Positions 14,001 through 34,321 of a stretch of 64,000 nucleotides of DNA are shown piece after piece (position 1 is the first letter of the stretch; each line of letters opens with the position of its first letter). The stretch is from a virus. Its lineage: Duplodnaviria > Heunggongvirae > Uroviricota > Caudoviricetes. The stretch is from IMG/VR virus record IMGVR_UViG_3300017989_000089, positions 1-64,000 of that record; one strand, written 5' to 3'. The notes below the pieces were generated by a model. The model made no database searches. It was given only the letters and a program-made list of their open reading frames with translations, and had not been told where the DNA came from. The position numbers and the translations under genes were made by a program.

Positions 14001-16116
14001 CACCGGCTTCTATAGTGATACCAAGTTGCTCAGCCTGGTAACGCATTGCAGCGGTGACGGGGTCTGCATCTGGATCGATTTTCTCCATGGACATAATCCA
14101 ACCTTCGAAGAACTTAGTCATCTTGTCACTAAGTCCATCGAATAGGATTGCGAGTCCATCCAGTGCCGGTCCTATAAGTTTGAATCCTTCTACGAGTACT
14201 CCTATACCACTACCCCAATATAGTATTTGTTTACCGAACTCAATGACGGGACCCAAGACACCACCGACACTCCCACCGAATGATGTGATCCAAGTGATTA
14301 CTGCCGTGAATGTGGAAGCGATAGTGGTTCCCCAACCTTTTGCTACATCGATCCATCCCTTGATTGTCTCTATAATGATCCCGCCAGTATCCTTTGCAGC
14401 ACCGCCAAGAAGCTTGAATACTTCTATGGACCCATACCATGCTTTCTGGAAGATACCTGCATTGTTTATCGCATTCTTAGCTAGATCATCGGATTTGCCT
14501 TGCAACGCTTCCGCACGAGCAGACAGAAAATCTGCAGCGGCAACACCACTCAGGATCCCGGCGGCAATTGCAGCCGCTGCTGTACCAACCGAAGCAGCCA
14601 CAGGACCGACAGCTGATCCAATCGAACTAAAAGCTGGTCCCAGCTTTGTCACCATTGGTACGAGCTTGCTTAGGGCACCGCTGAACTTATTGGCGGCTGT
14701 TGTACCTTTATCGAAAGGCAACATCATTTGTCCACCAGCAACGCTTGTTGCCATGAAGACACCCTTCAGCTTCACGAGTTCACCGGCCAACAAAGCAAAG
14801 ACAGTCTTGGACTGGTTAATCAAACTGATTGTACCAACAAGAGCGCCACCCATGGTCCCAGCGGCGATAGTAAGAGCGACCAAGGCACCGGCCAATCCTA
14901 TCGCACCTAGAATTGCTACTTTGAACGGATCAGGTAGAGATTGGATCCACTTTGCCATGGTAGCTAGAGCACCAGCAAATTTGATCCCGACATCAATCAA
15001 GCCAAGGATTTGGTCCTTGAAGGCATTGAACAAATTGATCCCGATCTCTTCTACGGCTCTCTTCAAACGTCCGAATTGGGCAGATACAGTCGACAACTGA
15101 ACCGCGAACTCACGCTCCAACTTGAGGTGACGTTCACGATCCTTCGTAGCAGCATCCATCGCTTTGCGGAATAGATCGGCAGCACCAGCACCAGCCAACA
15201 TAGTTTGGACAGTACGCAGGTTCTGCAGATCCAACTTCTCGAGGGAGACGAGGAGTTTATCGGACCCTTCATCTTTCAGACGTCCCAGGCCTTCGATAAA
15301 CTGAGCAATCGCCTCACCGGCATCCTTTTGGAAGAGTTGTTGGAACTCATCCATGGACATCTTAGTAACGTTTGCAAACTCCTGAAGCTTTGGCCCACCG
15401 GTAGCGGTAGCCTCGATCATTTGTTGAACTAGCCGCTGTACCGCAGTCGAAGCACGTTCAGTACCAGGGACGACAGCGGAGAACCCACCAGCCAAACCAA
15501 GGAGTTGCTCACCGGAGAGATTGGCAGCTTTAGCCATACCACCGAGTAGCACGGAGAAGTTGAGGATTCGTTCTTCTGTAGTCGGCAGCTTATCGCCTAG
15601 GAAGGCGAGAGTAGACGCAAGCTTGTCGACGTCATCTATACTCTCTCCGGTGAGCGCAACGAGTCGAGCCAGACCTCTGGCAGCGGCTTCAGGAGTAAGT
15701 TCCGCGGCAGCAATGCTCAACTTAGCAATCGTATCTGTGAATTTGGCAAGCTGTTTCGTACCCTCTACACCAAGTTGTCCACCGATTCTCGTCAAGTCAG
15801 CGAGTTCAGCTGCAGCGATACCGGTCGCCTTGGAGGCATCCATCAAGGACGACTCCAACTTGGCGAAGTCCGTTGTGGCGGGGTCAACAGTCTTACGAAC
15901 TCCAGCCATCGCTGATTCGAAATCAGTACCAACTTTCAAAGCGAAGCCGGAGATAGCACCGAAGCTAGCCGCAAATGCTGCCCCCATTCTGTATCCGACG
16001 ACGTTAAGGGTTGCAGAGAATGACTGCACCGTCTTCATCGATTCGGACAAACCGGATCTGAACCCACGGGAGTCCACTCCCATGGACATCATTAGAGGGC
16101 CGATATCTCTTGCCAT
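11065..16116 (-). CDS. tail tape measure protein
   Basis: 1683 aa, Ala/Gly-rich with coiled-coil stretches. Contains a TP901-type TMP motif (..AQFIEGLGRLKDEGSDK..). Position after the tail chaperones. Confidence 0.8.
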   Translation of the reverse strand: MARDIGPLMMSMGVDSRGFRSGLSESMKTVQSFSATLNVVGYRMGAAFAASFGAISGFALKVGTDFESAMAGVRKTVDPATTDFAKLESSLMDASKATGIAAAELADLTRIGGQLGVEGTKQLAKFTDTIAKLSIAAAELTPEAAARGLARLVALTGESIDDVDKLASTLAFLGDKLPTTEERILNFSVLLGGMAKAANLSGEQLLGLAGGFSAVVPGTERASTAVQRLVQQMIEATATGGPKLQEFANVTKMSMDEFQQLFQKDAGEAIAQFIEGLGRLKDEGSDKLLVSLEKLDLQNLRTVQTMLAGAGAADLFRKAMDAATKDRERHLKLEREFAVQLSTVSAQFGRLKRAVEEIGINLFNAFKDQILGLIDVGIKFAGALATMAKWIQSLPDPFKVAILGAIGLAGALVALTIAAGTMGGALVGTISLINQSKTVFALLAGELVKLKGVFMATSVAGGQMMLPFDKGTTAANKFSGALSKLVPMVTKLGPAFSSIGSAVGPVAASVGTAAAAIAAGILSGVAAADFLSARAEALQGKSDDLAKNAINNAGIFQKAWYGSIEVFKLLGGAAKDTGGIIIETIKGWIDVAKGWGTTIASTFTAVITWITSFGGSVGGVLGPVIEFGKQILYWGSGIGVLVEGFKLIGPALDGLAILFDGLSDKMTKFFEGWIMSMEKIDPDADPVTAAMRYQAEQLGITIEAGEKGIDVANRLAEAARKEAEEFAASAEGIRQAAEAKINLRMENESIIESLRASAEEAKRLKDAASFLGIKEEELSKIISEQGESFLDAVDAMREKIKADEEAKKAAEALRSEIEALTIDTAVTEFENYQRALIEAFAAGKEFTDQGLDAMSKKLFELAQRAGMEVDPALENLRKKFNENLVASIDWAKGIDQAIKSASKSLKDFSDISDEALQPPAGFKFTGAPEMPSFGETPKDMPGTLGAAIVAETEKQMKEAEKQAKKFRSAVRDLAAAFQVLGIDADSAFGKIMGGLTVGMQVGAEMKSSFKDIQGIMQKEGGSLFSSEGLAAGMQFMGNVVQGAGTIWKATAGGGAKAIFGGAAAGMSMGAQIGGPIGAGIGAAVGAAIGGIRNLWKSESEKIAADIERDFGVKISEELAKAIEATQEKFDLGRFESRLLHLGDIMREAGGAVAFGMENAEKQVVDLLNSIELGTVPAEEGIKAVGDAFSMMAEETFEAGKFADAAMLNIINRARELGQEIPEIAAFISDQLAQAAEGVSKMIGQAMEGEGGEKMFGGIQVATAEDAQAQATIFAAAFFATLQEEGLLAAVDAFEPAFQELKAKLEAFGGEVDFGGVQRFFDIAKDPQFRPLLEGIGGLTEAMTGLGNAGYLTTETFGALQQQAGAAFEQLTAAGLSQEEALQQIAPFLQEALNASQMFGFELDENTQKLIDQAEAAGIGFKTDPMQRMVEVLEIVATKLGATAEELGLVGNAGAQAGQHVAESFGMAGEEIGRDLEFIEGRGREAFERFEQGASENLRQISGTGMNEMQTLSNAGQEAVNALTASFEQGTAKDLEQFQVLHQGVADGTLGIVESMSIAVDAVGALGDSALGSADKFAAMADAARNAAAAASSANQTGGGGPGAPEGGQFGLATTVSVPTPFVAGEAGEERVEITPGGGRGGGDTGGPSIVVLQIDGKTIGKVIGDLSRTGDVRIHSDAVGEFG

Positions 16117-17010: not shown

Positions 17011-17784
17011 TTACGGCTTCACCGCAACTGCTACAGTGAAGGTGAAGGATGGAGTGGTTCCAGCGATAGTCCAATCAGCATGCAGATACTGATCGATGGT
17101 ATCGGATCCATTCGCCGTTTCGAGACGTTCGCAAGTAGGCGCGGTGGCCTGAGCGAAGGTCATTCCGGTAACAGGAGTCCACACCATGTCATCTGGGCTA
17201 TCCTCGATTACCACGTCGAGCGTAGGAGTGGTTCCAGATGCTAGGATGACGTGGAGGTGAGCGACGAGACCTTGAGTGGTTGTAGCAGCCCCACCGTAGA
17301 AATTGGTCATGTCGACGCTGGCTCCAGATCCGGTTGCAGACTCAGCGGCAATCGCGTGAAGCGAAACACCACGAGATAGGTCGCCGGAAAGTTGAAGATC
17401 CGCAGTCCACGCCTGTACACCATCCACCGGCTGAGTGGTGTTGTAGCTATTGATCAGCGCACGGAAAAGATATGCGATGTTCCCAATAGCCGCACCATTT
17501 GGAAAGTCGGTCCAGATGGATGCAGTCGGCGTATTGAAGGTCGCCTGCAGAATCGCATCGATGCCTTCATCGTAGTCATCATCGATGAAACCGGAAATAG
17601 ATCCGGTAGCATTCCGAAGACCATTGATGTAGGCTCGAGTGTCGTTGCAGTATGTCGTAACCTCGGGGAGGTCGATATCCTGCGTAAGATCGATGTTGTT
17701 CACGAAGCAGGTGATGTCGTGCTCACAGAGCACAACCTCAGTCTCTTTTCCGTGAAGGAACACAGGGTTGAGAATCTGACTCAT
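17011..17784 (-). CDS. major tail protein
   Basis: 257 aa, immediately upstream of the chaperones. Confidence 0.5.
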   Translation of the reverse strand: MSQILNPVFLHGKETEVVLCEHDITCFVNNIDLTQDIDLPEVTTYCNDTRAYINGLRNATGSISGFIDDDYDEGIDAILQATFNTPTASIWTDFPNGAAIGNIAYLFRALINSYNTTQPVDGVQAWTADLQLSGDLSRGVSLHAIAAESATGSGASVDMTNFYGGAATTTQGLVAHLHVILASGTTPTLDVVIEDSPDDMVWTPVTGMTFAQATAPTCERLETANGSDTIDQYLHADWTIAGTTPSFTFTVAVAVKP

Positions 17785-19436: not shown

Positions 19437-19886
19437 TTAAATCACCGTGAAGTCGACCGCAGGTCTACTACGACGAGTAGTACCCGGGTAGTCGTGCATC
19501 CCACGAAAGAAATCTCCACGTAGGATATTGGAATTCGACAACAGGGCATCCCGCTCGCTTTTGTACACACCTCCAATAGAAGGTTGCTGATGCATCGCAC
19601 CACGTGCTCGAAGCTGATCTTCCTTGACCTTGAGATCAGAGATCCTGCGAGCACGTAGACGTGTCTCACCAACTTTCTGTTCCTCCCAAATACCAGCTTG
19701 CAGCTTGAGAACCATCTGATTGACAGCCATAGCTGCGGCAAACCAGATATTAGGTTCCTGCGTCAGGATGAAGTCAATTTCTTCGTCCTCGAGTACGTGG
19801 TCATCCTTATTGGTATCGCCGGAGAGGAAACGTACCTTGTCTCGATCTCCTGGGAGACCCTCAGCAAGCTTGTACGAGAAAGTCAT
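19437..19886 (-). CDS. head-tail connector/head completion protein
   Basis: 149 aa, first gene after the head-module insertion. Confidence 0.4.
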   Translation of the reverse strand: MTFSYKLAEGLPGDRDKVRFLSGDTNKDDHVLEDEEIDFILTQEPNIWFAAAMAVNQMVLKLQAGIWEEQKVGETRLRARRISDLKVKEDQLRARGAMHQQPSIGGVYKSERDALLSNSNILRGDFFRGMHDYPGTTRRSRPAVDFTVI

Positions 19887-19898: not shown

Positions 19899-22800
19899 TT
19901 ATGGTGCATCACAGGCACTATCTGTGCGTAGGATGCTGATTACAACCTCGGTTCCGTTTGCTAGCTCCGCAATCAATGCACAGTCGTTGCCGGGGCCACC
20001 GGCACCACGATCTGACACATCGGAGAAATACAACCTGATATCGCTTCCACCAGGACTGGCTATAGCACCGCTTTGGTGCTCTAGATCCAAGTAAGCCCCG
20101 CTTTGGAGAGCGACCGTTCCGGTAGCTGCCGGGATAGTCACCGTATTCACTCCAGATGGAGAAGCAAAATCAAGATAGGTACCAGTCGTTGTGTTTCCCC
20201 ACAAGAACGTGTGATCCCATCCAGTACCCATCACGTGCAAAACCTCGTTTGCAGAGGATGGAGAGATACCGGACCACTGCACACCAAACTTGTTCCCAGC
20301 GGTGTGAGCGGCAGACGGGAAGTTGACCTTAAAGAACTCACGTTGATCTCCGGCGCTGTCCATCGCAGTCTCGTTCGTCTGCTCCATCAGGAAGCTGTAG
20401 CCGGAGTTGCCCGCCGCAACCTCTGATCCCATCTCGAAGTTAGGATCCTGAGTTGTCAACCTTGCCCAACGTATTGGACCGGTTGATGGAGCGAAGACGA
20501 TCGACCCTAGATACGGTGTATAGGTCTCTAGCCTCTGGTTCGGATCTCCGAAGTCACGGAGCTTAATGTATCCATCCGTTGTTGCGTCGTACCCGAAGTG
20601 GAGTTCAACCTCACTTGGAATCTGGATATCACCGGACGCACCGAGTGTAATATCAGCACCATCATCAGTGATCTGTGAGTCCGCCATCTCACTACCGTCC
20701 CACTTCGGTATAGCGTCGGAGGTAAGGCTGGAACCAGAAAGCGGTACACTACTTGCACCTGGATCGAAATAGCTAGACATGACCCACTGTGCTGTTGGGG
20801 TTGTCTGGTAAACGAATCCAATAGTGGACCCGGGCGTAAAGGTGAACGCGGATCCAGGTACCTCTTGTTGTCCTGCGATATCGTTCACAGTGATATCGAC
20901 GGAACCCTGGTTGTGTACGTAGAACCATACACCAGGCATGTCTCCGGCGCTTTCCGCAATCGACAAATCACAAGGTCCGGTAATGCAGGCGACGTTTCTC
21001 CACGAACCGGTTGGGGATTGCATCGGAGTTTCGGTAAGTGTCCCCGCGTTCAATTGATGTGTCGAGATGTTGAATCTGCGCGCACTTGCGAACTGGAAGT
21101 AACCGTTATCGGATGATGCGACAATGTCGTCTCCGGCTCCGTTCGCAGTGAGCAATAGGTTTCCACCGTTCACGGCGAACTGAAGCGTACCTGCTCTAGT
21201 GATGGTTCCAGCCCCGTTATCACTCATAGATCCGTCTACGATATTCGGTGAAGCAAACCTTGGGATGACGTTTGTAGTTCCGGATCCTGCGCTAACCAGC
21301 GCAACCGTCCCTGTTGCGTCTGGAAAGGTAACAGTGTTTGTGCCCGATGGGGACGGCACGTCAATGAAGAACTGGTTTCCCTGACCGGAAGTCGCGTCCG
21401 TATTGACCTCCAGCAGGTGATCGAACGTATTCCTCATCGACAGCAACGATTCCGTCGCATTGGCACTGTTAGCAGAGAGTTGTACACGAAAAGCATTCAA
21501 CCAGTTATTGGCTCCTGTGTGTGCGGCGTTTGTGATACTGGAGGAATACATATTCTTGACATCGTTACCATCCATCACTGCAGGATTGCCTAGGTGAACT
21601 ATGTCATTGGAGCTAGTTCCAGCCGCTCCAAATGTGGCATGCACACGAAACCGCTCCTGGTTGTTCTCTTCCAGTATCTTAAAGATGCCGGTTGGGTAAC
21701 TATCTAGGTAGAACCAATGAACAAGCCCGCCTCCTGTGGTCCCGTACTCGATATCAGTTCCCCAGTCCCAGATGTTGGAGTCCACCAGCTTTGTTCCATC
21801 CCAATAAGGGATCTTGTTTGCTGTCAAGCCGGATTCAAGTACGACTGTACCGCTAGCGTTTGGAAAAAGGATTGTTCTGTCAGCAGTAGGATTGACGACA
21901 TGAACTGTAGTCTCCCACGCATCGCCGACGCTCCCCTCAAATGCTAGACCTGCATCCATGTAACGCCCGAAGTAGATACCCCACTCGTCGGCATTTGCAT
22001 TTGGTGCGGTGAACGAATCGAGATAGAGCCAGGTCCATTCTCCGCCAGTGTGCGCCCCCTGAGCCACTTGCATATTGAATAGCTTTTGCACATCACCTGG
22101 AGCCATCGCGATAGTTGTTATGTTCCCAGCACCCATATAGCTACCGTTGGCAGCTGGTGTGAACAACTGGAACCACCACTCATCGGCGGTTGCATCATCA
22201 TCTATCACGAAATTGAAACTTACATCAGCCCCAAGTCTCATACCGTATGGGGCATCAGCATGGATGTGGCGGATCTCTCCGATATCGTTGGAGGTCTGAT
22301 GAAAGTTTATACCGTAGACAACCTCGGAGGAATCGTCCGCATCACCAAAGTTCATGTTGATGTAGTTGGTCTTTCCACTAGACAATGCCGTAATGTCCGG
22401 ATTGAAATTGAAGAGGTTGATTGTATTCCCCGCACCAGGGTCATTAAGCGTTGGTGCGATGGAAAGTACATCCCCTCCTGATGCCGCTGCTGGCACTGCC
22501 GCCTCTGCAATCTCGGAGTCAACTAGCTCGCCGGTTGTGCTTCCCTGGTACACATGTCTAGTTGCTGTCGACGTCACAACTCCAAACGTCCCAGACACGT
22601 CAGGTACAGCGATAGTCCGATTGGCGGTAGGAGTATTGAATCCAATATCAGTCGTGAACGTCGCAGTCTCGTAGCGAATCTCATTGTCCCAACCAGTCCC
22701 GAAGTTGATCGCGTTGTGGGTCGCGTTGGCTCCTGGTGTGATGTTCGAGAACTTGAAGCCATTCGCAACGTTGCCCGTTCCTGTATTTGCTGTAAACGTA

Positions 22801-24017
22801 GGCGAAAGTCTGAAAAAGTCCACAAGTGTTCGTGTGGTCCCGTTCATATCGCGGGCGTAGGCGTCGTACATAAACCAGCCAGTATCTGGAATCCCTGGTG
22901 CAGGTACATTGCTTCTATACCTGACATTGTAATCACCAGAATTCAATCCTGCCGCACCAACCGTCCATTCTTGGTAGGAGCCGTTGTTAATCAACGTGTC
23001 AATCACATCGAGGCGGTGCCGTCTATGAACCGTTCCAGTCCCGGAATCGAAATAGACTTCGTAGATCCCTCCGCCTCCTGGCCAACTAGAAAACAATAGC
23101 TTGTAGTCGTTAGGGAACCGTACACCATTTACACCATCATCGGTGATCATAGAGTCACCGATTGTAGTTGCTCCTGTGAACTTGGTCATGTAGTTTGTGG
23201 TTCCACCAGCAGAGAGCATAATCGTACCAGTGGCCGCAGGGATCGTTACAGTATTGTTCCCAGACGGAGCAGCAAAATCCAGGTACGTATTGTTCGCTCC
23301 AGCTGCATCACCCTTGTTCCAATCGTGATCCCATCCGCTACCAAGCTGTGTGTGGATCTCAGTTGCGGCAGATGGAGTGATAGATCCCCAAAACGCACCA
23401 TATTTGATTCCTGCAGTATGTGCTCCGGAAGCGGGTTCAATGTTAAGGTGGTACCGTCGATCATCTGCACTGTCCATCGCACTTTCAGTACCCTGACCGA
23501 TAATATTGAACTGAGGGCCAGACGTACCGGCTAGCACAAGAGCATTCATATTGATGTATGGCTTGTTGGCTCCACCATAATCGTAGATGACACTCCAAGG
23601 ACCACCAACGAACATCGCAATACCGGCGTTGTTGTTTTGTGCATCGATCTCGAAACGATCTGCAGCACCACCGAACGTGCGGTGGATAAGCGTAGTAATG
23701 TTGGCACCGGTACCAAAATCAACCTGATAGTCATAAGGAATGATCAGATTGGTGAGCGTGTCTTGAAGCGCGCTCGAGTCCTGAGTATGAGCACCACTCC
23801 AACGAACAAGATACGGAGACACACCAGTACCGGTCACATTATCAGCAGGGATAGGCCCACCACCACCACCACAGACGAAGTTGTCGTAGGCGTCAAAGCA
23901 GTTCTCGAGTGCCATAATCGCCTTAGACGACAGACCTCCGCCTTGTCTGCTACTCTGTGCAGATGCCATCCCGGCGATAGCCAAGAACACGACAAAGAAT
24001 AGGAATGTGCGTTTCAT
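19899..24017 (-). CDS. giant Sec-signal-peptide protein with internal ~150-250-aa repeats
   Basis: 1372 aa. N-terminus MKRTFLFFVVFLAIAGMASA-QSS is a typical signal peptide. At least four repeat units share ..AHTAG.K(Y/F)G..W...(P/S)..A.E...G.GWDH......YLDFA.PSG.NTVT(I/F)P(A/D)ATGT(I/V)AL.S. Confidence 0.6.
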   Translation of the reverse strand: MKRTFLFFVVFLAIAGMASAQSSRQGGGLSSKAIMALENCFDAYDNFVCGGGGGPIPADNVTGTGVSPYLVRWSGAHTQDSSALQDTLTNLIIPYDYQVDFGTGANITTLIHRTFGGAADRFEIDAQNNNAGIAMFVGGPWSVIYDYGGANKPYINMNALVLAGTSGPQFNIIGQGTESAMDSADDRRYHLNIEPASGAHTAGIKYGAFWGSITPSAATEIHTQLGSGWDHDWNKGDAAGANNTYLDFAAPSGNNTVTIPAATGTIMLSAGGTTNYMTKFTGATTIGDSMITDDGVNGVRFPNDYKLLFSSWPGGGGIYEVYFDSGTGTVHRRHRLDVIDTLINNGSYQEWTVGAAGLNSGDYNVRYRSNVPAPGIPDTGWFMYDAYARDMNGTTRTLVDFFRLSPTFTANTGTGNVANGFKFSNITPGANATHNAINFGTGWDNEIRYETATFTTDIGFNTPTANRTIAVPDVSGTFGVVTSTATRHVYQGSTTGELVDSEIAEAAVPAAASGGDVLSIAPTLNDPGAGNTINLFNFNPDITALSSGKTNYINMNFGDADDSSEVVYGINFHQTSNDIGEIRHIHADAPYGMRLGADVSFNFVIDDDATADEWWFQLFTPAANGSYMGAGNITTIAMAPGDVQKLFNMQVAQGAHTGGEWTWLYLDSFTAPNANADEWGIYFGRYMDAGLAFEGSVGDAWETTVHVVNPTADRTILFPNASGTVVLESGLTANKIPYWDGTKLVDSNIWDWGTDIEYGTTGGGLVHWFYLDSYPTGIFKILEENNQERFRVHATFGAAGTSSNDIVHLGNPAVMDGNDVKNMYSSSITNAAHTGANNWLNAFRVQLSANSANATESLLSMRNTFDHLLEVNTDATSGQGNQFFIDVPSPSGTNTVTFPDATGTVALVSAGSGTTNVIPRFASPNIVDGSMSDNGAGTITRAGTLQFAVNGGNLLLTANGAGDDIVASSDNGYFQFASARRFNISTHQLNAGTLTETPMQSPTGSWRNVACITGPCDLSIAESAGDMPGVWFYVHNQGSVDITVNDIAGQQEVPGSAFTFTPGSTIGFVYQTTPTAQWVMSSYFDPGASSVPLSGSSLTSDAIPKWDGSEMADSQITDDGADITLGASGDIQIPSEVELHFGYDATTDGYIKLRDFGDPNQRLETYTPYLGSIVFAPSTGPIRWARLTTQDPNFEMGSEVAAGNSGYSFLMEQTNETAMDSAGDQREFFKVNFPSAAHTAGNKFGVQWSGISPSSANEVLHVMGTGWDHTFLWGNTTTGTYLDFASPSGVNTVTIPAATGTVALQSGAYLDLEHQSGAIASPGGSDIRLYFSDVSDRGAGGPGNDCALIAELANGTEVVISILRTDSACDAP

Positions 24018-24511
24018 TATCTCAGTCTCCGCGAACCGTAGTAGTAGATGGAGATGTCTTCATCCGCCGCATCGCCATCGTCCGCACCATTGATCCTGAT
24101 ACCCACACGGATCTGTCTGAGGGCTTCAGGGATGACTACGTAGTGCGTGCCGACAGCTGCGAAGGAGTTTGTCAAACCGAGTTGAATGGGAGAAGTCCCT
24201 ACCTTGACTCTGGCGTAAATAGAGATATCGATGGTTCCGGCTGCTAGTGCCATCGCATCGACATGCATAGCGATCCCTTTGAAGTCTTCAGTACGCGCAT
24301 CAACCCATCCATCTTCAGCTGCGGTTCCGGTGGAGCACTGATCCATGCCCTCGGGAGGATTGGTCGCGTACGTAACAGGATCGCAGTAGACGTATGCAAC
24401 GGAGTCGAGGTCGTAGTTCTCGAAAATATCTGCCCGCTTGCCACCCGTTTGTGTAGCGGCTGGAATTGCCAGACACAATACGAGCGCGAGTGCGAAAGCT
24501 ATACGCTTCAT
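24017..24511 (-). CDS. small Sec-signal-peptide protein
   Basis: 164 aa. N-terminus MKRIAFALALVLCLAIPAATQ. Its stop overlaps the start of the giant protein as TAATGA. Confidence 0.5.
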   Translation of the reverse strand: MKRIAFALALVLCLAIPAATQTGGKRADIFENYDLDSVAYVYCDPVTYATNPPEGMDQCSTGTAAEDGWVDARTEDFKGIAMHVDAMALAAGTIDISIYARVKVGTSPIQLGLTNSFAAVGTHYVVIPEALRQIRVGIRINGADDGDAADEDISIYYYGSRRLR

Positions 24512-24591
24512 TTCAACACCTCAAGGCTCTGGGGGAAGAGCCCCTATGCAGAGGTGCATACACTCACGCCCTTCCCCCGGAAAGCATTGTT

Positions 24592-25050
24592 TTAGACTAG
24601 GTTCGCGTAGAGGATGTAGATATCCCCGCGGAACTGGACCCAGTCGCCAAGCGATCCGGCCTGGTACTGGATGGTCTCTCCACCACCATCGACATCGGCT
24701 TCAGGAACCAGAGTACCTGCTCCGTCTTCATCCACCACGAGCAGATCACCTCTTGTCTGCCCAGCATTGTCGAGTGTGGCCTTCTTCAGACCTGTCGTTG
24801 AAACATCAACTGCTGCCATGTACCCATTCGGATCACTCGTGCGTCCAACGTCGAGCGTCTTCGCGGCTCCTGCAACTTCAGCTACGCGAACATCCAGGAA
24901 GACATCGAGAACGACTGCTTTGGAGGGAAGAGTGAATCCTGTATTTTGAATGTTACCATCGGGTGCAGCATTGATGCGAATTCTCTTGATAGACGGAAGA
25001 AGCCCATCCATCACACGTGCTCTTGCTCGAGTTAGTTGCTGAATTCCCAT
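24592..25050 (-). CDS. hypothetical head-associated protein
   Basis: 152 aa, downstream of the capsid gene. Confidence 0.4.
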   Translation of the reverse strand: MGIQQLTRARARVMDGLLPSIKRIRINAAPDGNIQNTGFTLPSKAVVLDVFLDVRVAEVAGAAKTLDVGRTSDPNGYMAAVDVSTTGLKKATLDNAGQTRGDLLVVDEDGAGTLVPEADVDGGGETIQYQAGSLGDWVQFRGDIYILYANLV

Positions 25051-25056
25051 TTCACA

Positions 25057-25383
25057 TTACCCCTTTTTAGCCACCGGCACCCTTCCGACTGCAGGGACAT
25101 CCCCTACATCCTTCCCTCCAGGTCTCTCGGAGAGAACAGGAGGTTTCGGTGACACCGACAGCTTAGAAACTTCCCGAGAAGTAGGTAGCGGTTCACGCTC
25201 GTTCTTCACGATGCGGTTACCGGACTTCACTTGCTCCTTGTCCTTCTCGGGCGCAGAAGGCTTACCGATGAATCGGTGCTCCAAGAGGAGGCGCTCATTC
25301 TTCCAGTGAGACGTCTCAACTATCTCCCCTCTTTCGAGCATGCGTCCTTCTGCCTTAAACTTCTTCAGAACTTGGTGCAACAT
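25057..25383 (-). CDS. hypothetical protein
   Basis: 108 aa, basic and Pro-rich. Confidence 0.3.
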   Translation of the reverse strand: MLHQVLKKFKAEGRMLERGEIVETSHWKNERLLLEHRFIGKPSAPEKDKEQVKSGNRIVKNEREPLPTSREVSKLSVSPKPPVLSERPGGKDVGDVPAVGRVPVAKKG

Positions 25384-25454: not shown

Positions 25455-26405
25455 TTAGGAAACAGCGTTAGTCCAGAAGTAGCCCATGTCAGGCGCGACA
25501 ACCTTGTTGTCCCACGCCTTCTCGGCCTCGACCCGCTCCGCCTTCTTGAGGCGCATTGGGATACGAGTGATTCCGATGGCTTCTCCGAGACCTTGGCTGA
25601 CTCCACGCCAAGCGAAGGTGTATCCAGCGGAAGGCTCATAGAGCCCAGGTGCGCTGGCAACGTACATGAGCAACGCCTGCTTTCCTTGGATGAAATCGTA
25701 AGCTTCGGCCTCACCCTCAGCATTGGTCGCCTGAATTGCACGACACACCATGATCCGCTCTACACCAAACAGGGTGGCGAGAAGATCTTCAGCAACGACA
25801 CGGAACTGCGTGTACTTGATCCGGTCGATGATGTCCGGATGGTTCTTCAGCTTCCGGAACACCTGGTAGCCCATAACAAGCGTGTTAGGCTTGTGGCCGG
25901 TCGTACCAAGAATGGTCTCCTTTCCTTCTTCGACATCGTCGATAGGATCGGAGGACGCATAGTCGTCCCAGGAATCGGTGAGAGTGATATCGCTATCCCA
26001 AACACCGATAGTGAAGAAGTCAGCCGCCCACTGATTCTCTTGACGGAGAAGCATCTTCTGCGTCACGAACCGAGTGGCATCACGGAACGGATTGAGAGGT
26101 ACGTCCGTATTGGACGCAGTCTGGTTGTCCACATCCTTGTGGATGGCCCAGACGTCGCAGTTGTAGTTGTCGGTTCCGACGTTATATCCAGACCCCTCCG
26201 ACTCGGTAGCCGGTGCTCGCCGTTTCGCCTCATCGCGGAACCAATCATTCTTGTCATAGACATAGTAGAGGTCGCTCTTCTTGTCTACAGGAATGATCGG
26301 AAATACCTTCGTAGCACAAAAGGCATCCTGTTCCTGGATGTACGCAACGGAGACCTGGGTGAGGATCGCGTCTACGTGAACTTGATTGAGTGTAGGTTGT
26401 GGCAT
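25455..26405 (-). CDS. major capsid protein
   Basis: 316 aa, after scaffold and decoration genes. Preceded by AAGGAGGA. Confidence 0.65.
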   Translation of the reverse strand: MPQPTLNQVHVDAILTQVSVAYIQEQDAFCATKVFPIIPVDKKSDLYYVYDKNDWFRDEAKRRAPATESEGSGYNVGTDNYNCDVWAIHKDVDNQTASNTDVPLNPFRDATRFVTQKMLLRQENQWAADFFTIGVWDSDITLTDSWDDYASSDPIDDVEEGKETILGTTGHKPNTLVMGYQVFRKLKNHPDIIDRIKYTQFRVVAEDLLATLFGVERIMVCRAIQATNAEGEAEAYDFIQGKQALLMYVASAPGLYEPSAGYTFAWRGVSQGLGEAIGITRIPMRLKKAERVEAEKAWDNKVVAPDMGYFWTNAVS

Positions 26406-26418: not shown

Positions 26419-26814
26419 TTATGCAGCCCTGGAAGGCGCTGCGCAATCGATCAACGCCGAGAAGATCGTTCCAGCACCGGACGCATCTTCCATAGCTTTT
26501 CCAAGCTTGAACTGCGTCACGTCCATACCAGAAACAATCGTGTCTCCCTCACCATCTGCAGAGGTTCCGAGTTCGTCGCCGTAGCTGATACCACTGTCGG
26601 CGACAAGCTTGGTGATACCGTATACAACGATCTCAACCTCTTCCCCTTCCTCGGGATCACCTTGCTGGACTCCAACAGGCTCATCCGTATTTGCGGTCAC
26701 CTTGATGACCTCATTGGGGTTGGCAGGGTCGATTTTCACGAAGCGATACTGGTTGTCCGAAAGATCCTCTCCAGCAACCCTAGTGATCTTGAAACCATGA
26801 AGTTCGGTAGCCAT
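26419..26814 (-). CDS. head decoration / DUF2190-like protein
   Basis: 131 aa, acidic and Gly-rich, located between the scaffold and major capsid genes. Confidence 0.4.
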   Translation of the reverse strand: MATELHGFKITRVAGEDLSDNQYRFVKIDPANPNEVIKVTANTDEPVGVQQGDPEEGEEVEIVVYGITKLVADSGISYGDELGTSADGEGDTIVSGMDVTQFKLGKAMEDASGAGTIFSALIDCAAPSRAA

Positions 26815-28434: not shown

Positions 28435-29928
28435 TCAGGCATTTTTTCTGCGAGTTCCGTGCCCTCCAACGCTGAATCCGTTGTACTCACCACGTTCAAC
28501 TCCGGCCCAGAGTGCAGGATCTTTCACCTTCACCCCAATGATCCAGGTGCCGACCTTCAAGCTTTTTGGACCGAGCTTGGTACGCCCTTGTGTCACGTAA
28601 CTATCTGTCAACTCAACACCTTCCGCGACTTTACGATGACGCAGACCAATCCGGCGAGAACGGAGCATGAAGCTCTCCGCAGCTTTTTCGATCTCTTCTG
28701 CACTCACCGTATCATCTTGAGTGTCGGTCTCTTCTGGCTCGAGAACGATTCCGTAAATTTTTTGCTTTTTCTTGTCGATTTTCGCGATTGGGACGTTGAA
28801 CCAGACATCTTCTTTCTTTATTTCGTCGTCTTCCTCATCCTCGTCCTTCCCACTACCTGGTTGGTGAACCTGCCCAAGTGTGGGCTGTCCTTTATCCACC
28901 TTTCCCCCACATTTCTTGTCAAGTTTGTTGGTTTCACGCTCCAGCTTGGCTTTCACTTTCTGCTTCACAGTTTCCTCACCTTGCCGTTTGAGCTTCGAGG
29001 ACTCGATAGCAGCGAGTTGGCGAATCGCATCGGAACGCTTGTCGTGTGTTCCAAGAACTTTCTGCCCAGAATCATCAGTTACTTCCCATTTTCCACTAGC
29101 AGTAGGACGAATACGCTTGCGGATCTTGGCCTTGACGAGTTCCATCACTGGCTTTTTAGGATCAGTATTTTCGTCATCATCATTTCCCATCTCGGATGCT
29201 TTGTGTAGACCGAGAGCTTGGTCCATCAATTCAGAATGGATAAGCTCCTGCGCAAGACGGAACCTGAACTCAGATAGATACTTCGCGCAGATGTTGAGAT
29301 CGCACTTGGCAAACCAGTAAATGGGATCGCCGTCCACGACTTGACATGTCCCCGCCTCACCCATGGAGCGCATGAAGAAACGGCAACCGGAGCAAGTAGT
29401 GTGGCCATCCGGAGCGCGATCGATATAGTTCGCCTGTTCCAAGGTGAACTTACCATTCTCCGAAACCATCTGAAGCGTCTCTTCTACAGTGTAGCCTCGA
29501 TCGCTCATTGGAGCATCGCGCATAATTTCACCCTGGAGTGTCTTCTCGACTTCGTCGTCAGTCTTCCCGATGTACTCCTGGATAACAGCCAGCTTCGTAT
29601 CGATAGAAAGTTTTCGTTCACGCATCTCTTGTACCACCCAATTGCTAGCCTTAAGGAAGGCTGATGTGTCTTCTTTCGTCCGCTTCGCAGTCACAAATAT
29701 CCTATTGAGCCGAGAAAGAATTGTTTTGAGTTCCTTATCCTTTAGGTTCTTCAAGCGTTCCGGCCTAAGCTGAGGGATCGCGATCTTCTCGAAGATAGAC
29801 GGGCCAGACATCTTCCATCTGGCCTGTGCCCCCGACATAGGGATGGCGGCAGACTTGATCTGCTCGTACAAGAACTCCGGAATGAGTTCCTTTGCTTTCT
29901 GGTGAAACGCCGAGTGGAATTCAGACAT
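28435..29928 (-). CDS. minor head protein (MuF-like) with C-terminal XkdF-like domain
   Basis: 497 aa, immediately after portal with overlapping stop and start. C-terminus KIYGIVLEPEETDTQDD...GFSVGG resembles the XkdF domain. Confidence 0.45.
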   Translation of the reverse strand: MSEFHSAFHQKAKELIPEFLYEQIKSAAIPMSGAQARWKMSGPSIFEKIAIPQLRPERLKNLKDKELKTILSRLNRIFVTAKRTKEDTSAFLKASNWVVQEMRERKLSIDTKLAVIQEYIGKTDDEVEKTLQGEIMRDAPMSDRGYTVEETLQMVSENGKFTLEQANYIDRAPDGHTTCSGCRFFMRSMGEAGTCQVVDGDPIYWFAKCDLNICAKYLSEFRFRLAQELIHSELMDQALGLHKASEMGNDDDENTDPKKPVMELVKAKIRKRIRPTASGKWEVTDDSGQKVLGTHDKRSDAIRQLAAIESSKLKRQGEETVKQKVKAKLERETNKLDKKCGGKVDKGQPTLGQVHQPGSGKDEDEEDDEIKKEDVWFNVPIAKIDKKKQKIYGIVLEPEETDTQDDTVSAEEIEKAAESFMLRSRRIGLRHRKVAEGVELTDSYVTQGRTKLGPKSLKVGTWIIGVKVKDPALWAGVERGEYNGFSVGGHGTRRKNA

Positions 29929-31490
29929 TATGCTGTCTCCCCTCCCTCAGGTGGGAATGCTTGTTGTTCCTCCCCCGGCTTTTTCTTCGGCTGATCAGAG
30001 AAAGCGTCCTCCGCCGGTCCCGGACGGGCACCGACATTTGGCTGATCATGTGGATCATCATCGTCTGAAGGATCCATCACGTCACCAATCGCTGGTAATG
30101 TCTCTCTAGGATCGATTCGTATTGGAAATGATGCAATCTCCCTCATGTGTCTCTCGAGGTTCTGGTCGGGAGTCAATACATTGTTCCCAACGAGCTTGTT
30201 CACATATTCTGCGAGTGACTTGAGATCTGGAGTATCGATCGGACCGAATCTAATGTACGGCGTCTTCTCTGTACGCATCCCATTCATTCGGAGCAGTCTA
30301 GGAATGGCGTGTCGATTGAATTCACCTTCGATAACATTTGCCACGGATCTAAGTGCCTTGCTGAACAAACTCACTTTCGCCGCAACGAGAGCAAACGAAC
30401 CAACACGTTCCTGCCCAATAAGAAGCATATCCGCAAGAGCTACAGTAGCGATGCGCTGTGCGTAACGGTTGATGATGATCGATGTGTCGAGAGATCTTTG
30501 GCCGGTCGCACTCAGAAGAGTCAATGTCCATCCGAATGGGAGCACGACACCTTGATGCATATCCTGTCGAATGTTCCTCACCAGTTCCTCTGCGCGGGTC
30601 AACAGGGTTTGAGCAACTGGATCTTTCGTGTTCCATAGGTTATATCCCTCAGGAGGCTGCAATACAGGCATACCATTGAGTTCACGCTCAACGGCGATGG
30701 CTTCGATCTCTTCGATCCTTTTCATGAAGAACCAAGGTCTGTATGCATTGCGTAGGATGGAGCGCCCTTCAGGATTCGACTTGTACGGACGGATCGTGAA
30801 GTGAAGAGCTTTCTCCCTTGGTACCAGGGTATTTATGAAATGCGGTGGCGGCAGTTGCTCAAGAGCAACTACATTCATGGTCTCGTCCATGTGCCACCGA
30901 TACGTAGTATCTTGGCCGCGGAGCGCCATCTTGCTCCAACCGATCAAACCATCGTTGTATTGAGAATCCTTATTCGGATCTCTGTGGTGACCCCTACGAT
31001 GCTTCAGCGTCACCTCCATGTACGAATAACCGAACGGCAGAAACGTGAGGATCTCAGAGAAGACATGGTTCCATGGGTGGATCATGTCGTTGATAGAGGT
31101 TTCAACCAGCATGCGCGCCTTCTCGCCCTGCGGAGAGGTATCATCGGTTAGCACATTCAAGGTCGCGTTACCAATAAGGTGCTCCATAACGTAGAGCATC
31201 GCGCCGACAGTCGGATCATTGTCACGCATCTCTTGATAGACACGCGCAGCAAGATGCCCGCGGAGTTCAGGAAGGAATTCCTCCTCGAGAAACCCTGAAT
31301 AGATTCTAAGACCAGGAGCACCAACATCCCTGAAATGAGCAGCACGAGGTATTCGCTTGGCGACCTGGCTCATATCGTAGCCAGTACCGAGGTCGCGCAT
31401 GAACTCGGATTGCTTTTCTAGGTAGGTCTCGTAGTCTTTAGGATCCAGGTATTCCCTGGCCGACTTCAAAATAGGAGTAGTGCTTGGCAT
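29928..31490 (-). CDS. portal protein
   Basis: 520 aa, downstream of the large terminase gene. Acidic C-terminus. Confidence 0.65.
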   Translation of the reverse strand: MPSTTPILKSAREYLDPKDYETYLEKQSEFMRDLGTGYDMSQVAKRIPRAAHFRDVGAPGLRIYSGFLEEEFLPELRGHLAARVYQEMRDNDPTVGAMLYVMEHLIGNATLNVLTDDTSPQGEKARMLVETSINDMIHPWNHVFSEILTFLPFGYSYMEVTLKHRRGHHRDPNKDSQYNDGLIGWSKMALRGQDTTYRWHMDETMNVVALEQLPPPHFINTLVPREKALHFTIRPYKSNPEGRSILRNAYRPWFFMKRIEEIEAIAVERELNGMPVLQPPEGYNLWNTKDPVAQTLLTRAEELVRNIRQDMHQGVVLPFGWTLTLLSATGQRSLDTSIIINRYAQRIATVALADMLLIGQERVGSFALVAAKVSLFSKALRSVANVIEGEFNRHAIPRLLRMNGMRTEKTPYIRFGPIDTPDLKSLAEYVNKLVGNNVLTPDQNLERHMREIASFPIRIDPRETLPAIGDVMDPSDDDDPHDQPNVGARPGPAEDAFSDQPKKKPGEEQQAFPPEGGETA

Positions 31491-32611: not shown

Positions 32612-34321
32612 CTACCTACGGCGGACCCCCCAACTACCCATGACATCTTTTCGGGTAGTATAGCTATCTTCAGGAGACCATCCAGTCTCGTGTTGGAATC
32701 TATTCTCGAAGCCGACACCAGTCGGGAAAGCATCAGGATCTATTTGGAATGCAGCATAGCGTATCAGTGCATGCGTCATGGAGTCAACTATATCATCTCT
32801 AGATGCTTTCGGGAATCTACAAGCTTCATCCAAAACAAGTTCGACCCAAGAATACATCTCTGGATCAGGAAGACGTACATTACCAGCTTCGATCAACCAG
32901 AGAACAGAGCCATAGCGAGCAGTCTTCGGTTCGTTCCCTGTGTCGACCGCGATGATACCAGCGACTTTCTTGCGCATCGTCGCCATAATTGCGGTACCAT
33001 TGGCGCGATCCTCTACGAGCTTCTCTTGCGCCTTCGGGAAATCTTGGTGGACCTTGATGAAAGCCTTGAGCGTGTCGTTGAAACCAATTTGCGCACGGAA
33101 CATATGAATGAGATAGAGATACAAACCAATCTGTGCCCACACTGTGCCGACGACATAAGAGGTATCGGTACTGGCTTCTTCCTCATCCTTGAAGCTCATA
33201 TCCCATGACGTGAAGATCTTGTATGCTCTCTCATAGATCTCCATCGGATCGTCTTTGTAGAATGCATCCTCGAACCACTTTCTCTTCGCCATACCACCCT
33301 CAAGGGGTACGGGATCTTGTTGGAACTGTCCTGCGTAGGACCAGGAATCCATCTTGCGATTGAGCTTGGGGTTCTTGCCGGATACGTTCGCGCCTTTCTG
33401 TTTATCGACCCACTCTTGATCGAAACGCTTTGGATTGAGAAGCTCTCCATCCTTCTCACGAGGATCAGTCAAACCGAGATCCGGGACGATGCATCGACTC
33501 TTCTTCACGAACTCCATTGGAAGACAAAGATGCGTCCATCCTCCTTGTTCAAGCACATGTCCAGATAGATCACGATCATGAACACGCTGCATAATGATCA
33601 TCCGGCGAAGATTCCTAGGATCACCCTCGGCACGGGTCGACATTACTTGATCCCACCAAATGAGTACGCCCTCCCTTTTGATCTCCGAGTGGGCTTCACG
33701 AACGTTGTGTGGGTCGTCCACTACGATGATGTCACCACCACGACCGGTCGCCATACCACCAACGGATGTCGTGAGGCGGTATCCCATCTTGTCGTTTTCG
33801 ATTTCCTTGATAGCCTCAGAGGTGATCGTGTACATGTGCCCAAAGTGTCTTCTGTACCACCTAGACTGCATCACCTTCTTTGCATACCCGGAGTGCTTGA
33901 GCGAAAGGGTTGCGGAATAAGAAGAGTAGATCCATCTGAGGTGTGGCCACTTCGTCCAGACCCACGGTTGGAACATGACTGTTGATACCATGGACTTGGT
34001 ATGCCGCGGAGGAACGTTGATCAATAGGTCTTTGATCTGGCCTACAGCGAGAGCTTCCAAAGCCTCGCAGATATAGCCTATATGCCAGTTGCTGACGAAC
34101 GGATTCTCCGGCTCTATGACATGCCAAGCATTCTCGATAAACGTAATGAGATGGCGAGAAGACTTTTCCGCACGTATGGAGTCCAGATCTAGGATACGAT
34201 CAAAGGCCTCAACTTTTGTATCGGTGATTTCCCGCTTTCTGCGGGCTCTGGGTTTCTTTGGAAGAGGTCCTAGCTCTTTTATCTCTTCGAGGGTCGGATC
34301 GTCATTCAATGATCTCTGCAT
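32612..34321 (-). CDS. terL: terminase large subunit
   Basis: 569 aa. The segment IIVVDDPHNVREAHSEIKRE..W and a nuclease-domain-like C-terminus fit the Terminase_6 family. Confidence 0.8.
   Translation of the reverse strand: MQRSLNDDPTLEEIKELGPLPKKPRARRKREITDTKVEAFDRILDLDSIRAEKSSRHLITFIENAWHVIEPENPFVSNWHIGYICEALEALAVGQIKDLLINVPPRHTKSMVSTVMFQPWVWTKWPHLRWIYSSYSATLSLKHSGYAKKVMQSRWYRRHFGHMYTITSEAIKEIENDKMGYRLTTSVGGMATGRGGDIIVVDDPHNVREAHSEIKREGVLIWWDQVMSTRAEGDPRNLRRMIIMQRVHDRDLSGHVLEQGGWTHLCLPMEFVKKSRCIVPDLGLTDPREKDGELLNPKRFDQEWVDKQKGANVSGKNPKLNRKMDSWSYAGQFQQDPVPLEGGMAKRKWFEDAFYKDDPMEIYERAYKIFTSWDMSFKDEEEASTDTSYVVGTVWAQIGLYLYLIHMFRAQIGFNDTLKAFIKVHQDFPKAQEKLVEDRANGTAIMATMRKKVAGIIAVDTGNEPKTARYGSVLWLIEAGNVRLPDPEMYSWVELVLDEACRFPKASRDDIVDSMTHALIRYAAFQIDPDAFPTGVGFENRFQHETGWSPEDSYTTRKDVMGSWGVRRR

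Follow-up and report, generated by a model that had tools for sequence, protein, structure and literature searches.

A phage gene pair with Sec-type signal peptides that may form an exported base-plus-fibre complex

Introduction

T7 gp17, the fibres of SU10 and the head fibre gp8.5 of phi29 have no signal peptide and are assembled in the cytoplasm. The gene pair considered in this study resembles the genes of these fibres in its modular repeats, its conserved N-terminal anchor, its variable distal domains, its high variability among close relatives and its location beside capsid or adaptor genes. However, both partners of the pair carry signal peptides and cysteine pairs, and in this respect they differ from those fibres.

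Other phage products are sent to the host envelope, as the products of the present pair are predicted to be. T5 Llp, Cor of T1 and phi80, Lom and Bor of lambda and gp15 of HK97 block receptors or entry, and some of them are embedded in structural gene regions. Unlike the pair, these are small lipoproteins or outer- or inner-membrane proteins, and in many cases their expression is early or comes from the prophage. None of them is a fibre, none has a base-plus-fibre design, and no homology between them and the pair was detected.

XepA of PBSX and YomS of SPbeta, both from Bacillus subtilis, offer a further comparison. These C2-like beta-sandwich proteins are made late, exported past the cytoplasmic membrane and absent from the phage particles, and they are encoded at the end of the structural operon near the lysis genes (PMC6834076). 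The pair may resemble them on these points, although the host of PBSX and SPbeta is Gram-positive, our small protein has no detectable sequence similarity to either protein, and XepA, a pentamer with two domains, lacks a partner fibre. Phages of Porphyromonas gingivalis, which are temperate and have classical Bacteroidia as hosts, have been described as carrying signal-peptide genes that obey the Q rule (PMC10367356). By contrast, the genome studied here makes heavy use of Shine-Dalgarno sites. In the literature, we found no description of an exported or signal-peptide-bearing phage fibre system.

Arrangement of the gene pair

The window, which is the whole stretch of 64,000 nucleotides that was analysed, contains a small gene and a large gene whose features are collected in Table 1. 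The preliminary description of this DNA placed two translationally coupled genes between the capsid and connector genes, and this arrangement was confirmed. Both reading frames lie on the minus strand at the positions claimed, and at the junction (...AGA TAATG AAA...) the stop codon of the small gene and the start codon of the large gene share one base, with GGAG upstream of the start of the large gene. The major capsid protein gene is located at 25455-26405, and the connector genes run from 19886 downwards. The gene for the 149-aa adaptor forms the downstream boundary of the variable cassette and is separated from the large gene by a gap of 12 bases. The two genes are tightly packed in the late operon.

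Table 1. Positions in the window of the gene pair, its protein segments and adjoining features.
Feature	Position	Strand	Basis or remark
Small gene ("base" protein), 164 aa	24017-24511	minus	exported beta-sandwich, predicted
Large gene (modular fibre protein), 1372 aa	19899-24017	minus	start coupled to the stop of the small gene
Small protein, signal peptide, residues 1-20	24452-24511	minus	sequence features and conservation
Large protein, signal peptide, residues 1-20, MKRTFLFFVVFLAIAGMASA then Q	23958-24017	minus	sequence features, relatives
N-terminal "docking" segment, residues 21-49, QSSRQGGGLSSKAIMALENCFDAYDNFVC, Cys40-Cys49	23871-23957	minus	profile
Repeat module 1, about residues 93-271	23205-23741	minus	matches module 5 with 40% identity across 180 residues (E 1e-31)
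Repeat module 2, about residues 330-480	22578-23030	minus	most diverged module
Repeat module 3, about residues 560-727	21837-22340	minus	contains FEGSVGDAWETT..NPTADRTILFPNASGTVVL
Repeat module 4, about residues 790-909	21291-21650	minus	motifs
Non-repeat domain, about residues 937-1100, Cys1011-Cys1016	20718-21209	minus	
Repeat module 5, about residues 1130-1306	20100-20630	minus	motifs
Conserved C-terminal cap, residues 1307-1372, ..LYFSDVSDR..DCALIAELANGTEVVISILRTDSACDAP, Cys1346-Cys1369	19902-20099	minus	
Conserved 149-aa protein	19437-19886	minus	head-tail adaptor-type, PHROG 1732, Ottawa gp103 homologue
Conserved RNA/DNA hairpin (extended stem 24522-24589)	24531-24578	minus	individual folding of relatives

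The same description regarded the pair as inserted, listed a moron among the candidates and suggested a comparison with relatives that lack the insertion. These views were not borne out. The GC content of the pair (0.51-0.54) is that of the genome (0.49-0.54 across the window), and every close relative, as defined by a capsid protein 82-84% identical, keeps the small gene at the same position. No sigma-70-type promoter-like site was found upstream of the pair in a scan that does not cover non-sigma-70 hosts, and the 12-base gap on the 3′ side contains no terminator-like site. By its defining features, a moron was rejected: no promoter or terminator of its own was found, the composition is typical, and the presence of the small gene is not sporadic. 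A recent insertion is not supported by these data. It is also very improbable that the pair serves lysogenic conversion, with a prophage expressing a surface adhesin or exclusion factor that benefits its host. Lom and Bor of lambda, gp15 of HK97 and Cor are exported phage proteins of broadly this type. However, the 64 kb examined showed neither an integrase nor a repressor, no family member turned up in two pattern scans covering 185,579 reference genomes, and the lack of promoter-like and terminator-like sites, the genome-like GC content and the tight packing in the late operon also speak against it.

Signal peptides and cysteine pairs

Signal peptides were judged by rule, that is, by sequence features together with conservation, and by a heuristic scan. 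Both proteins have the features of substrates of Sec and signal peptidase I, namely a positive n-region, a hydrophobic core of 10-15 residues and small residues at -3 and -1. In the large protein, MKR is followed by FLFFVVFLAIAGM and by ASA, with QSS after the cleavage site. In the small protein, MKR is followed by IAFALALVLCLAI and PAAT, so that A-A-T precedes the cleavage site and Q follows it; the corresponding site reads ASA before and QK after cleavage in 14 of 15 homologues. Six of the 315 ORFs of at least 60 aa were matched by the scan: the small gene, the large gene, one holin-like protein and three short and probably spurious ORFs, one of which overlaps the large gene. The small and large genes appear to be the only real genes in the window with signal peptides of the Sec type.

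The character of the signal peptide is kept among 15 close homologues of the small protein, but its sequence is not. Relatives of the large protein likewise have signal peptides of the same character and of different sequences, each followed by Q. In the distant small-protein family, signal peptides are present in 104 of 120 cluster representatives. The predicted cleavage site is directly followed by Q in all cassette proteins examined but one, the 129-aa protein of locus L011, in which the site is not clear-cut, and Q lies close to the site in about 80 of the 104 distant members, which fits the rule described in PMC5837995.

The presence of a signal peptide is associated with that of cysteines. 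At least two cysteines occur in the mature part of 114 of 119 members with a signal peptide versus 5 of 12 members without one (Fisher p = 4.7e-6); these are counts over whole proteins, and an insertion in the 230-260-aa subgroup makes column-based counts of Cys43 and Cys59 unreliable. In all eight members without a signal peptide that have a recognisable motif, the first conserved cysteine is replaced by G or A, a reading confined to the members without a signal peptide because the regular expression for the motif over-matched inside signal peptides. Locus L100 has both partners with neither signal peptide nor cysteines, and in locus L097 the signal peptide is confined to the fibre partner. 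Every conserved segment has one cysteine pair of its own, and these cysteines are missing from the few homologues without signal peptides. Signal peptide and cysteine pairs are gained and lost together, which makes export testable and probably real. Both proteins look truly exported. The Sec signal peptides claimed earlier for both genes have held up, given their conserved character in more than 100 homologue clusters and their tie to the cysteine pairs, and the accompanying remark that such signals are unexpected in a head module is a fair one.

Two other routes were considered and rejected. The small protein contains L-V-L-C13, where Leu at -1 leaves no lipobox ([LVI][ASTVI][GAS]C), and conservation of Cys13 does not extend beyond the close group; in the large protein, the signal peptide is free of cysteine. 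A lipoprotein reading was therefore discarded for both. Cargo of type IX secretion would carry a C-terminal sorting domain of 70-100 residues (TIGR04183 / TIGR04131, PF18962), and neither protein of the pair matched anything in Pfam or NCBIfam; the conserved C-terminal cap comprises only about 45-65 residues. The proteins of eight relatives gave 0 matches to the type IX sorting-domain models in NCBIfam, and their single weak match in that database, to choice-of-anchor D, fell on the 129-aa protein of L011 below the cut-off.

The small protein and its family

The mature part of the small protein contains Cys43, Cys59 and an acidic loop, NGxDDGDAADED. It is predicted to be a beta-sandwich and is the conserved core of the locus. 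A sensitive search assembled 121 clusters (50% identity) of this family, all of them unannotated, and the family has no match in Pfam, NCBIfam or the PDB. In structural comparison, XepA ranked first for the small protein, with a model of moderate confidence, a very common fold and no sequence similarity. With the same model, a Foldseek search of BFVD returned only weak matches, which are small uncharacterised phage beta-sandwiches. A scan of viral contigs with subgroup A8 gave no matches. In relatives with about 60% capsid identity, proteins of 90 aa were rejected as homologues of the small protein (hhalign probability 15%).

Architecture of the large protein

The large protein comprises five diverged repeat modules and three local cysteine pairs. 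P-x-x-[ST]-G-T occurs at residues 260, 472, 719, 899 and 1296, AHTAG-type motifs occur at residues 199, 410, 655, 832 and 1237, and GWD-type motifs occur at residues 226, 440 and 1264 and, in degenerate form, at 684 and 862. The earlier reading of a repeat protein with AHTAG and GWD motifs agrees with these modules, which are of the tail-fibre type, and its count of at least four repeats is to be corrected to five. The repeats are pairwise 23-42% identical. The large gene has no tandem repeat at the DNA level, so a recent tandem DNA duplication was rejected as their origin; the duplications are therefore old, or the modules have been shuffled.

The sole family match of the large protein is to PHROG 38058, "tail fiber protein", over 46 residues (684-729), and no sequence match was found in Pfam, NCBIfam or the PDB. 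Besides the protein itself, a full-length search retrieved only three tail-fibre-like proteins, which have about 6% of its length in common with it, and a profile of the 70-residue fibre module matched nothing among PDB sequences or PHROGs. The AF2 model of residues 1-330, built from a 9-row alignment, had a pLDDT of 40. The C-terminal cap is common to L007, L009, P0021, P0022 and P0024, and the docking segment is the only part common to all fibres at the locus, which range from 220 to 1372 aa. We consider the large protein to be composed, as far as its sequence indicates, of a conserved helix-like N-terminal segment, shuffled tail-fibre-type modules in variable number and interchangeable C-terminal caps. 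A polymorphic toxin was rejected; the caps are short and have no family matches, and the next gene is the conserved adaptor gene rather than an immunity gene.

When a 24-residue profile of the docking segment was compared with 1154 ORFs of distant loci, the two best matches (E 0.048 and 0.092) were both ORFs directly downstream of the beta-sandwich gene. Furthermore, the small domain is naturally fused to a fibre in P0046 and P0048. The base overlap, the adjacency of the genes, the fusions and the synteny of the docking profile suggest that the small protein and the fibre are physically linked.

Conservation of the locus in other phages

The genomic context was gathered via the small protein; the 1372-aa protein had no record in the contig index. 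In the close relatives, between zero and three exported fibre genes of high variability lie after the small gene, the fibres range from 0 to 1372 aa, and locus L010 keeps the small gene with no fibre gene at all. The small proteins of these relatives are 62-75% identical and their adaptors 54-58%, beside the 82-84% of the capsid protein. The fibre is the variable part of the locus. Across the wider lineage, a large variable protein is encoded in the slot between capsid and adaptor genes, for example in Arthrobacter phage Ottawa, and in relatives with about 60% capsid identity the motif of module 3 is present in fibre genes of the same slot that lack signal peptides. The adjacency of small and fibre genes is kept in siphophage- and podophage-type genomes, and the pair lies beside head-tail adaptor genes in very different phages, including SU10-like podophage genomes.

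In podophage relatives, the small gene heads runs of genes for exported proteins and lipoproteins beside adaptor and lysis genes. The beta-sandwich gene belongs to a run of exported proteins in L098, L101, L103 and L100, and it leads the run in the first three. These runs include a SASA esterase, Laminin-G proteins and lipoproteins with Peptidase_S8 or trypsin domains, and they adjoin holin-like and M15-like genes. The candidate functions named earlier include an exclusion factor, an adhesin, a head fibre and a glycan binder, and such surroundings favour an envelope-acting protein over a virion part.

The lysis genes nearby raise a further alternative, in which the beta-sandwich, with or without the fibre, acts like XepA as an accessory of lysis or exit and weakens the membrane or an outer envelope layer so that lysis by the endolysin is completed. 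The pair adjoins small transmembrane proteins in L094, L096, L098 and L100, with an M15-like peptidase gene nearby in L094, L098 and L100, and no spanin candidate was seen beside the amidase of the window. We nevertheless regard such a role as quite unlikely: the amidase gene (4086-4700) is about 15 kb away from the pair, a fibre that is hypervariable and reaches 1372 aa would be surprising in a lysis factor, and the fold match is generic and comes with no sequence similarity.

The chief alternative is a neck or head fibre of the virion that would be exported, folded with disulfides in the periplasm and joined to finished particles only at lysis. The large protein has fibre-like features, namely the 46-residue PHROG match and motifs shared with fibres that lack signal peptides, and its conserved docking segment with variable distal parts is what receptor-binding fibres show. 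The recurrence of the pair by adaptor genes in siphophage-type and SU10-like podophage genomes, the fibres without signal peptides that fill the same slot in relatives and the cytoplasmic version of both partners in L100 agree with this alternative. However, to our knowledge no tailed phage adds virion parts after lysis, L010 keeps the small gene with no fibre, and the tail module of the window is complete and unrelated in sequence to the large protein. In addition, the gene stands elsewhere among lipoproteins and exported enzymes, which cannot be parts of a capsid. We consider a virion fibre rather unlikely. The general form of this idea is an extracytoplasmic assembly step, in which neck or head fibres and their base are exported, oxidatively folded in the periplasm and attached at lysis, with lineages switching between this route and a cytoplasmic one that uses neither signal peptide nor cysteines; we judge it unlikely as well. 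The signal peptides argue against cytoplasmic assembly of the pair as a virion fibre, and the runs of exported genes, the complete and unrelated tail module and the XepA match point away from the virion.

Proposed role outside the cytoplasm

The explanation that we prefer, with a confidence slightly better than even, is that the pair encodes a base-plus-fibre complex that is exported by Sec, stabilised by disulfides and active on the host envelope at a late stage of infection. Both proteins would be exported at that stage, at the same time as the virion proteins of the cytoplasm but apart from them. Cleavage of the signal peptides would expose an N-terminal glutamine able to cyclise, and both proteins would fold oxidatively. 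The fibre would dock on the beta-sandwich base through its N-terminal segment, and its variable part would then bind a component of the host envelope or cell surface. The purpose is the weakest step. We infer that the complex might mask the receptor that the phage itself uses, or occupy it, on the infected cell and on its debris, or might ready the envelope for release. It might do so together with the products that related phages encode near the small gene, namely the exported esterase, the proteases and the lipoproteins.

Several observations count against this envelope-acting complex. The single signal peptide in L097, on the fibre partner, disagrees with a simple complex formed in one compartment. 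A fibre of 1372 residues is hard to fit into the periplasm, and a signal for passage across an outer membrane was not found. The fibre modules are the same as those of the fibres without signal peptides in the same slot of related phages, and L100 has a version of the pair that would not be exported. Moreover, a neck fibre would be expected to be encoded beside adaptor genes in widely differing phages, as this pair is.

The pair belongs to a phage module that is widespread and unannotated and that seems to operate outside the cytoplasm. Known envelope-directed phage proteins are small and few, whereas this family is large, and its design is different, with a conserved exported base that is paired with or fused to a hypervariable fibre of tail-fibre modules. 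This base-plus-fibre module is located inside the late structural operons of phages of unrelated morphotypes, and the joint gain and loss of signal peptide and cysteine pairs provides an internal control for export. If the complex masks receptors or aids release, it would represent a novel means by which virulent phages control the surface of a cell that they are about to lyse. If it is a virion fibre, the rule that tailed phages are completed in the cytoplasm would be overturned. Either way, this class of genes is left blank by annotation pipelines or is liable to be mislabelled as "tail fibre".

A hairpin upstream of the pair

The spacer of 80 nt upstream of the small gene contains a hairpin just 5′ of the ribosome-binding site. 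It has no U tract on its 3′ side, and Rfam gave no match. RNAalifold recovered only a 6-bp stem and missed the long hairpin because the MAFFT alignment on which it was run is out of register. When each sequence was folded on its own, a hairpin of -25 to -40 kcal/mol was formed in 9 of 9 relatives, and several positions of the stem have changed on both sides with pairing kept (A-U / G-C / U-A).

Secretion signals and architecture of the gene pair

The two genes form a module whose products are clearly made with secretion signals and built for oxidation. Both open reading frames were found on the minus strand at the coordinates given in the preliminary description, and the translational coupling proposed there was likewise recovered, with the first stop and the second start sharing one base (TAATG) and GGAG upstream. 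Each N-terminus shows the tripartite organisation typical of Sec signal peptides, as had been proposed. A rule-based scan of all 315 ORFs of at least 60 aa returned six matches, namely the pair, a holin-like protein and three short ORFs, one overlapping the large gene, that are probably not real genes. Because so few real genes matched, chance is excluded as an explanation for two neighbouring matches. There are two cysteines (43 and 59) in the mature small protein and six in the mature large one, where they fall into three local pairs (40/49, 1011/1016 and 1346/1369).

The structural model of the small protein predicts, with moderate confidence, a signal helix followed by a beta-sandwich (mean pLDDT 66, core ~80). 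The large protein is repetitive, as first described, although it contains five diverged modules rather than four. Pairwise identity among the modules is 23-42% (best pair, modules 1 and 5, E 1e-31); every module ends with a block of the type ..PSGxNTVT(I/F)PxATGT(V/I)AL, and the linkers between them have the form IPKWDGxxxxDSxIxD. No tandem repeat was found in the DNA of the large gene. Searches of Pfam, NCBIfam and PDB sequences gave no match to the protein, and its sole family match is one of 46 residues to a PHROG 'tail fiber' family.

A strong hairpin (-35 kcal/mol) occupies the spacer from the preceding gene to the ribosome-binding site of the small gene. All nine relatives retain it, with matched base changes on the two sides of the stem. 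It lacks a U tract and matches nothing in Rfam; it may serve for RNase III-type processing, for attenuation or for stabilisation of the mRNA.

Gene order and the variable slot

The pair belongs to the late structural operon, on the minus strand, of a siphovirus-type phage (see the table). At the DNA level, no isolated phage was close to the window; the most similar capsid proteins come from Arthrobacter phages (55% identity).

Coordinates of features in the window, in operon order, and in related loci
Feature	Position	Strand	Remark
Terminase small subunit	34302-35063	-	
Terminase large subunit	32612-34321	-	
Mu-like portal	29928-31490	-	
XkdF-type protease fusion	28435-29928	-	Prohead protease domain at residues ~380-495; N-terminal ~370 residues without clear family
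Scaffold-like protein		-	Between protease fusion and cement-like gene
Cement-like protein	26419-26814	-	
Major capsid protein	25455-26405	-	
Two small proteins	25057-25383; 24592-25050	-	Between major capsid gene and pair
Hairpin	24522-24589	-	Main stem 24531-24578
Small protein of the pair	24017-24511	-	164 aa
Large protein of the pair (fibre)	19899-24017	-	1372 aa
Adaptor-type protein	19437-19886	-	149 aa; directly after pair
Further connector genes, tail terminator		-	Between adaptor-type and major tail genes
Major tail protein	17011-17784	-	
Tape measure	11065-16116	-	
Distal tail proteins		-	Between tape measure and amidase
Membrane protein	4852-5220		122 aa; directly upstream of amidase
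Amidase	4086-4700	-	As listed: TTG start, no ribosome-binding site
L014, tandem gene copies	8619-9449		Upstream of small gene
L099 (Arthrobacter phage Ottawa), gp102	10363-12666		767 aa, unannotated
L007, ~150-aa protein	13603-14055		
L096, ~150-aa protein	4920-5381		
L098, exported run	10001-15704		
L101, exported run	6974-11509		
L103, exported run	7001-12066		
L100, exported run	11761-13334		

The true amidase start is probably an internal Met at residue 52 (MRHIDPEE..), and the membrane protein beside it may be a holin; no spanin pair was recognised near the window's amidase.

The pair had been described as inserted between capsid and connector genes, a view that we abandon. Its GC content equals that of the genome, and the contigs of close relatives carrying homologues of the small gene keep the window's gene order, with a cassette of three genes at most, and sometimes none, separating the small gene from the adaptor gene. 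Neither a sigma-70-like promoter upstream of the pair nor a terminator-like site in the 12-base gap before the adaptor gene was found. The cassette encodes 1372 aa in the window, 807 aa in L006, 702 + 330 + 150 aa in L007, 545 + 316 aa in L009, 461 + 129 aa in L011, 370 + 384 aa in L014, 220 aa in L008 and nothing in L010. Each of these proteins opens with a signal peptide or a signal anchor. Q follows the signal in all except the 129-aa protein of L011, whose cleavage site is ambiguous. L009 has an extra 102-aa ORF just before the adaptor gene, with an N-terminus that is not signal-peptide-like.

We are confident of the contrast between the two partners, a conserved small protein and a hypervariable fibre. 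The 15 homologues of the small protein (62-75% identity; capsid 82-84% and adaptor 54-58% across these phages) all have a signal peptide ending in ..A-S-A|Q-K or similar, and all retain Cys43 and Cys59. The fibres have only three features in common: an N-terminal segment of ~30 residues (GGGLSTKAIxALExCFDxxxxFxC), shuffled modules, and a C-terminal cap drawn from a small set. In more distant relatives (capsid ~60%) and in phage Ottawa, the slot is taken by large proteins or fibres that lack signal peptides, some with FEGxxADAFET..DPTADRT(I/V)T(L/F)PNA(S/T)GT, as in window residues ~695-727. Since the slot is occupied across the lineage, also by signal-less proteins, the position is a conserved variable slot, and what is peculiar to the window's subgroup is the export of everything in it. 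The signal-less fibres in the same slot, the adaptor genes as neighbours and the fibre-like design all speak for the main alternative to an envelope function, namely that the fibre belongs to the neck or head and is attached once the cell has lysed.

Gp102 of Ottawa occupies the capsid-adaptor slot of the nearest isolated phages; it lacks a signal peptide, and its sequence is unrelated. L014 carries two diverged copies, in tandem, of the 138-aa gene homologous to window gene 24592-25050. The homologous ~150-aa proteins of L007 and L096, two unrelated phage types, lie within or just past the exported cassette and have an i-spanin-like layout, in which an N-terminal signal or anchor precedes a long stretch resembling a coiled coil.

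Distant relatives of the small protein

Run without filters, a profile search from the alignment of the small protein recovered 121 cluster representatives at E values up to 1e-3, none of them annotated and all from metagenomes. Signal peptides occur in 104 of the 120 representatives examined, ~80 of them with Q at or near the predicted cleavage site. Two or more cysteines are present in the mature part of 114/119 signal-peptide members, compared with 5/12 signal-less ones (Fisher p = 4.7e-6), and exactly one in 0/119 signal-peptide members. Moreover, the first conserved cysteine is G or A in all eight signal-less members with a recognisable YDLD..Y.Y motif. Judged from these sequences, the cysteines appear to go along with export.

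The partners are firmly linked by coupling, adjacency, fusion and a common docking segment, the conserved N-terminal stretch of the mature fibre. In the natural fusions P0046 (666 aa) and P0048 (704 aa), a signal peptide and the small-protein domain are followed by linkers and modules of the same kind as those of the window fibre. In L094, a signal-peptide homologue precedes a 747-aa signal-peptide fibre. In L100, a signal-less homologue precedes a 171-aa protein starting MARAGGSFTAKALQALGQLID, which is the docking segment without signal peptide and cysteines; this cytoplasmic version also favours a neck or head fibre. When a docking-segment profile (24 residues) was run against 1154 ORFs of seven distant loci, these syntenic ORFs of L094 and L100 were the top two matches (E values 0.048 and 0.092).

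In the podophage-type genomes L098 and L101, the beta-sandwich gene directly follows an SU10-like adaptor gene; three short genes separate the two in L100. In L097, it follows an adaptor-like 341-aa gene, and only the fibre partner has a signal peptide, a neat fit to neither the envelope nor the neck-fibre reading. The gene heads a run of exported products in L098, L101 and L103. The L098 run comprises signal-peptide-bearing Laminin-G and SASA-esterase proteins, together with a holin-like protein, an M15-like peptidase and two lipoproteins (one with Peptidase_S8); L101 and L103 have five or six consecutive signal-peptide or lipoprotein genes, and L100 has two lipoproteins (one trypsin-like). 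These runs of 5-7 exported proteins and lipoproteins in the podophage-type relatives adjoin holin-like and M15-like genes and look like a phage 'secretome island'.

Proposed function

We infer that the products would assemble outside the cytoplasm as a base-plus-fibre complex, the fibre of which would bind something on the host envelope. The purpose is the weakest step of the argument. We favour action on the envelope of the infected cell, either receptor occupation or masking or the preparation of release, because exported esterases, proteases and lipoproteins accompany the module beside lysis genes, because the tail is complete without it, because the small gene persists without any fibre in L010, and because the phage appears virulent. 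The working of the module is closest to that of the phage-encoded envelope proteins Llp, Cor, Lom and XepA, although it lies outside their families, and a lysis role like that of XepA is less likely. The fibre part resembles phage fibres; however, their expected cytoplasmic assembly is at odds with a fibre bearing a signal peptide. We found no description of exported phage fibres in the literature, and the nearest published remark concerns P. gingivalis phages with unexplained signal-peptide genes obeying the Q rule (PMC10367356). There is a modest chance that the module is something more unusual than a variant of what is already known.

Host and lifestyle

A Shine-Dalgarno core (GGAG/GAGG/AGGA) is present at -4 to -18 in 38 of 55 window genes (69%), compared with 14% in the background. 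Classical Bacteroidia and Flavobacteriia largely lack Shine-Dalgarno sites, and therefore this usage argues against such a host. At least five unrelated signal-peptide families in the cassettes have Q directly after the cleavage site, which fits the Q rule; this rule covers a mean of 71% of signal-peptidase-I substrates in Bacteroidetes, 77% in Ignavibacterium and <9% in most Chlorobi (PMC5837995). For classical Bacteroidia, the two signals conflict, and our guess is a host elsewhere in Bacteroidota sensu lato. No relatives of the small protein were found in 185,579 reference genomes.

The examined parts of the window showed no integrase; the phage looks virulent, and a role in lysogenic conversion is less likely. 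The close relative L014 lies on a 315-kb contig (ENA ERZ25072490 ctg196362, 314,847 bp, 157x; 21 kb examined), which could be a prophage in a host chromosome or an assembly concatemer. A prophage would be at odds with a virulent lifestyle and would show which host the phage uses.
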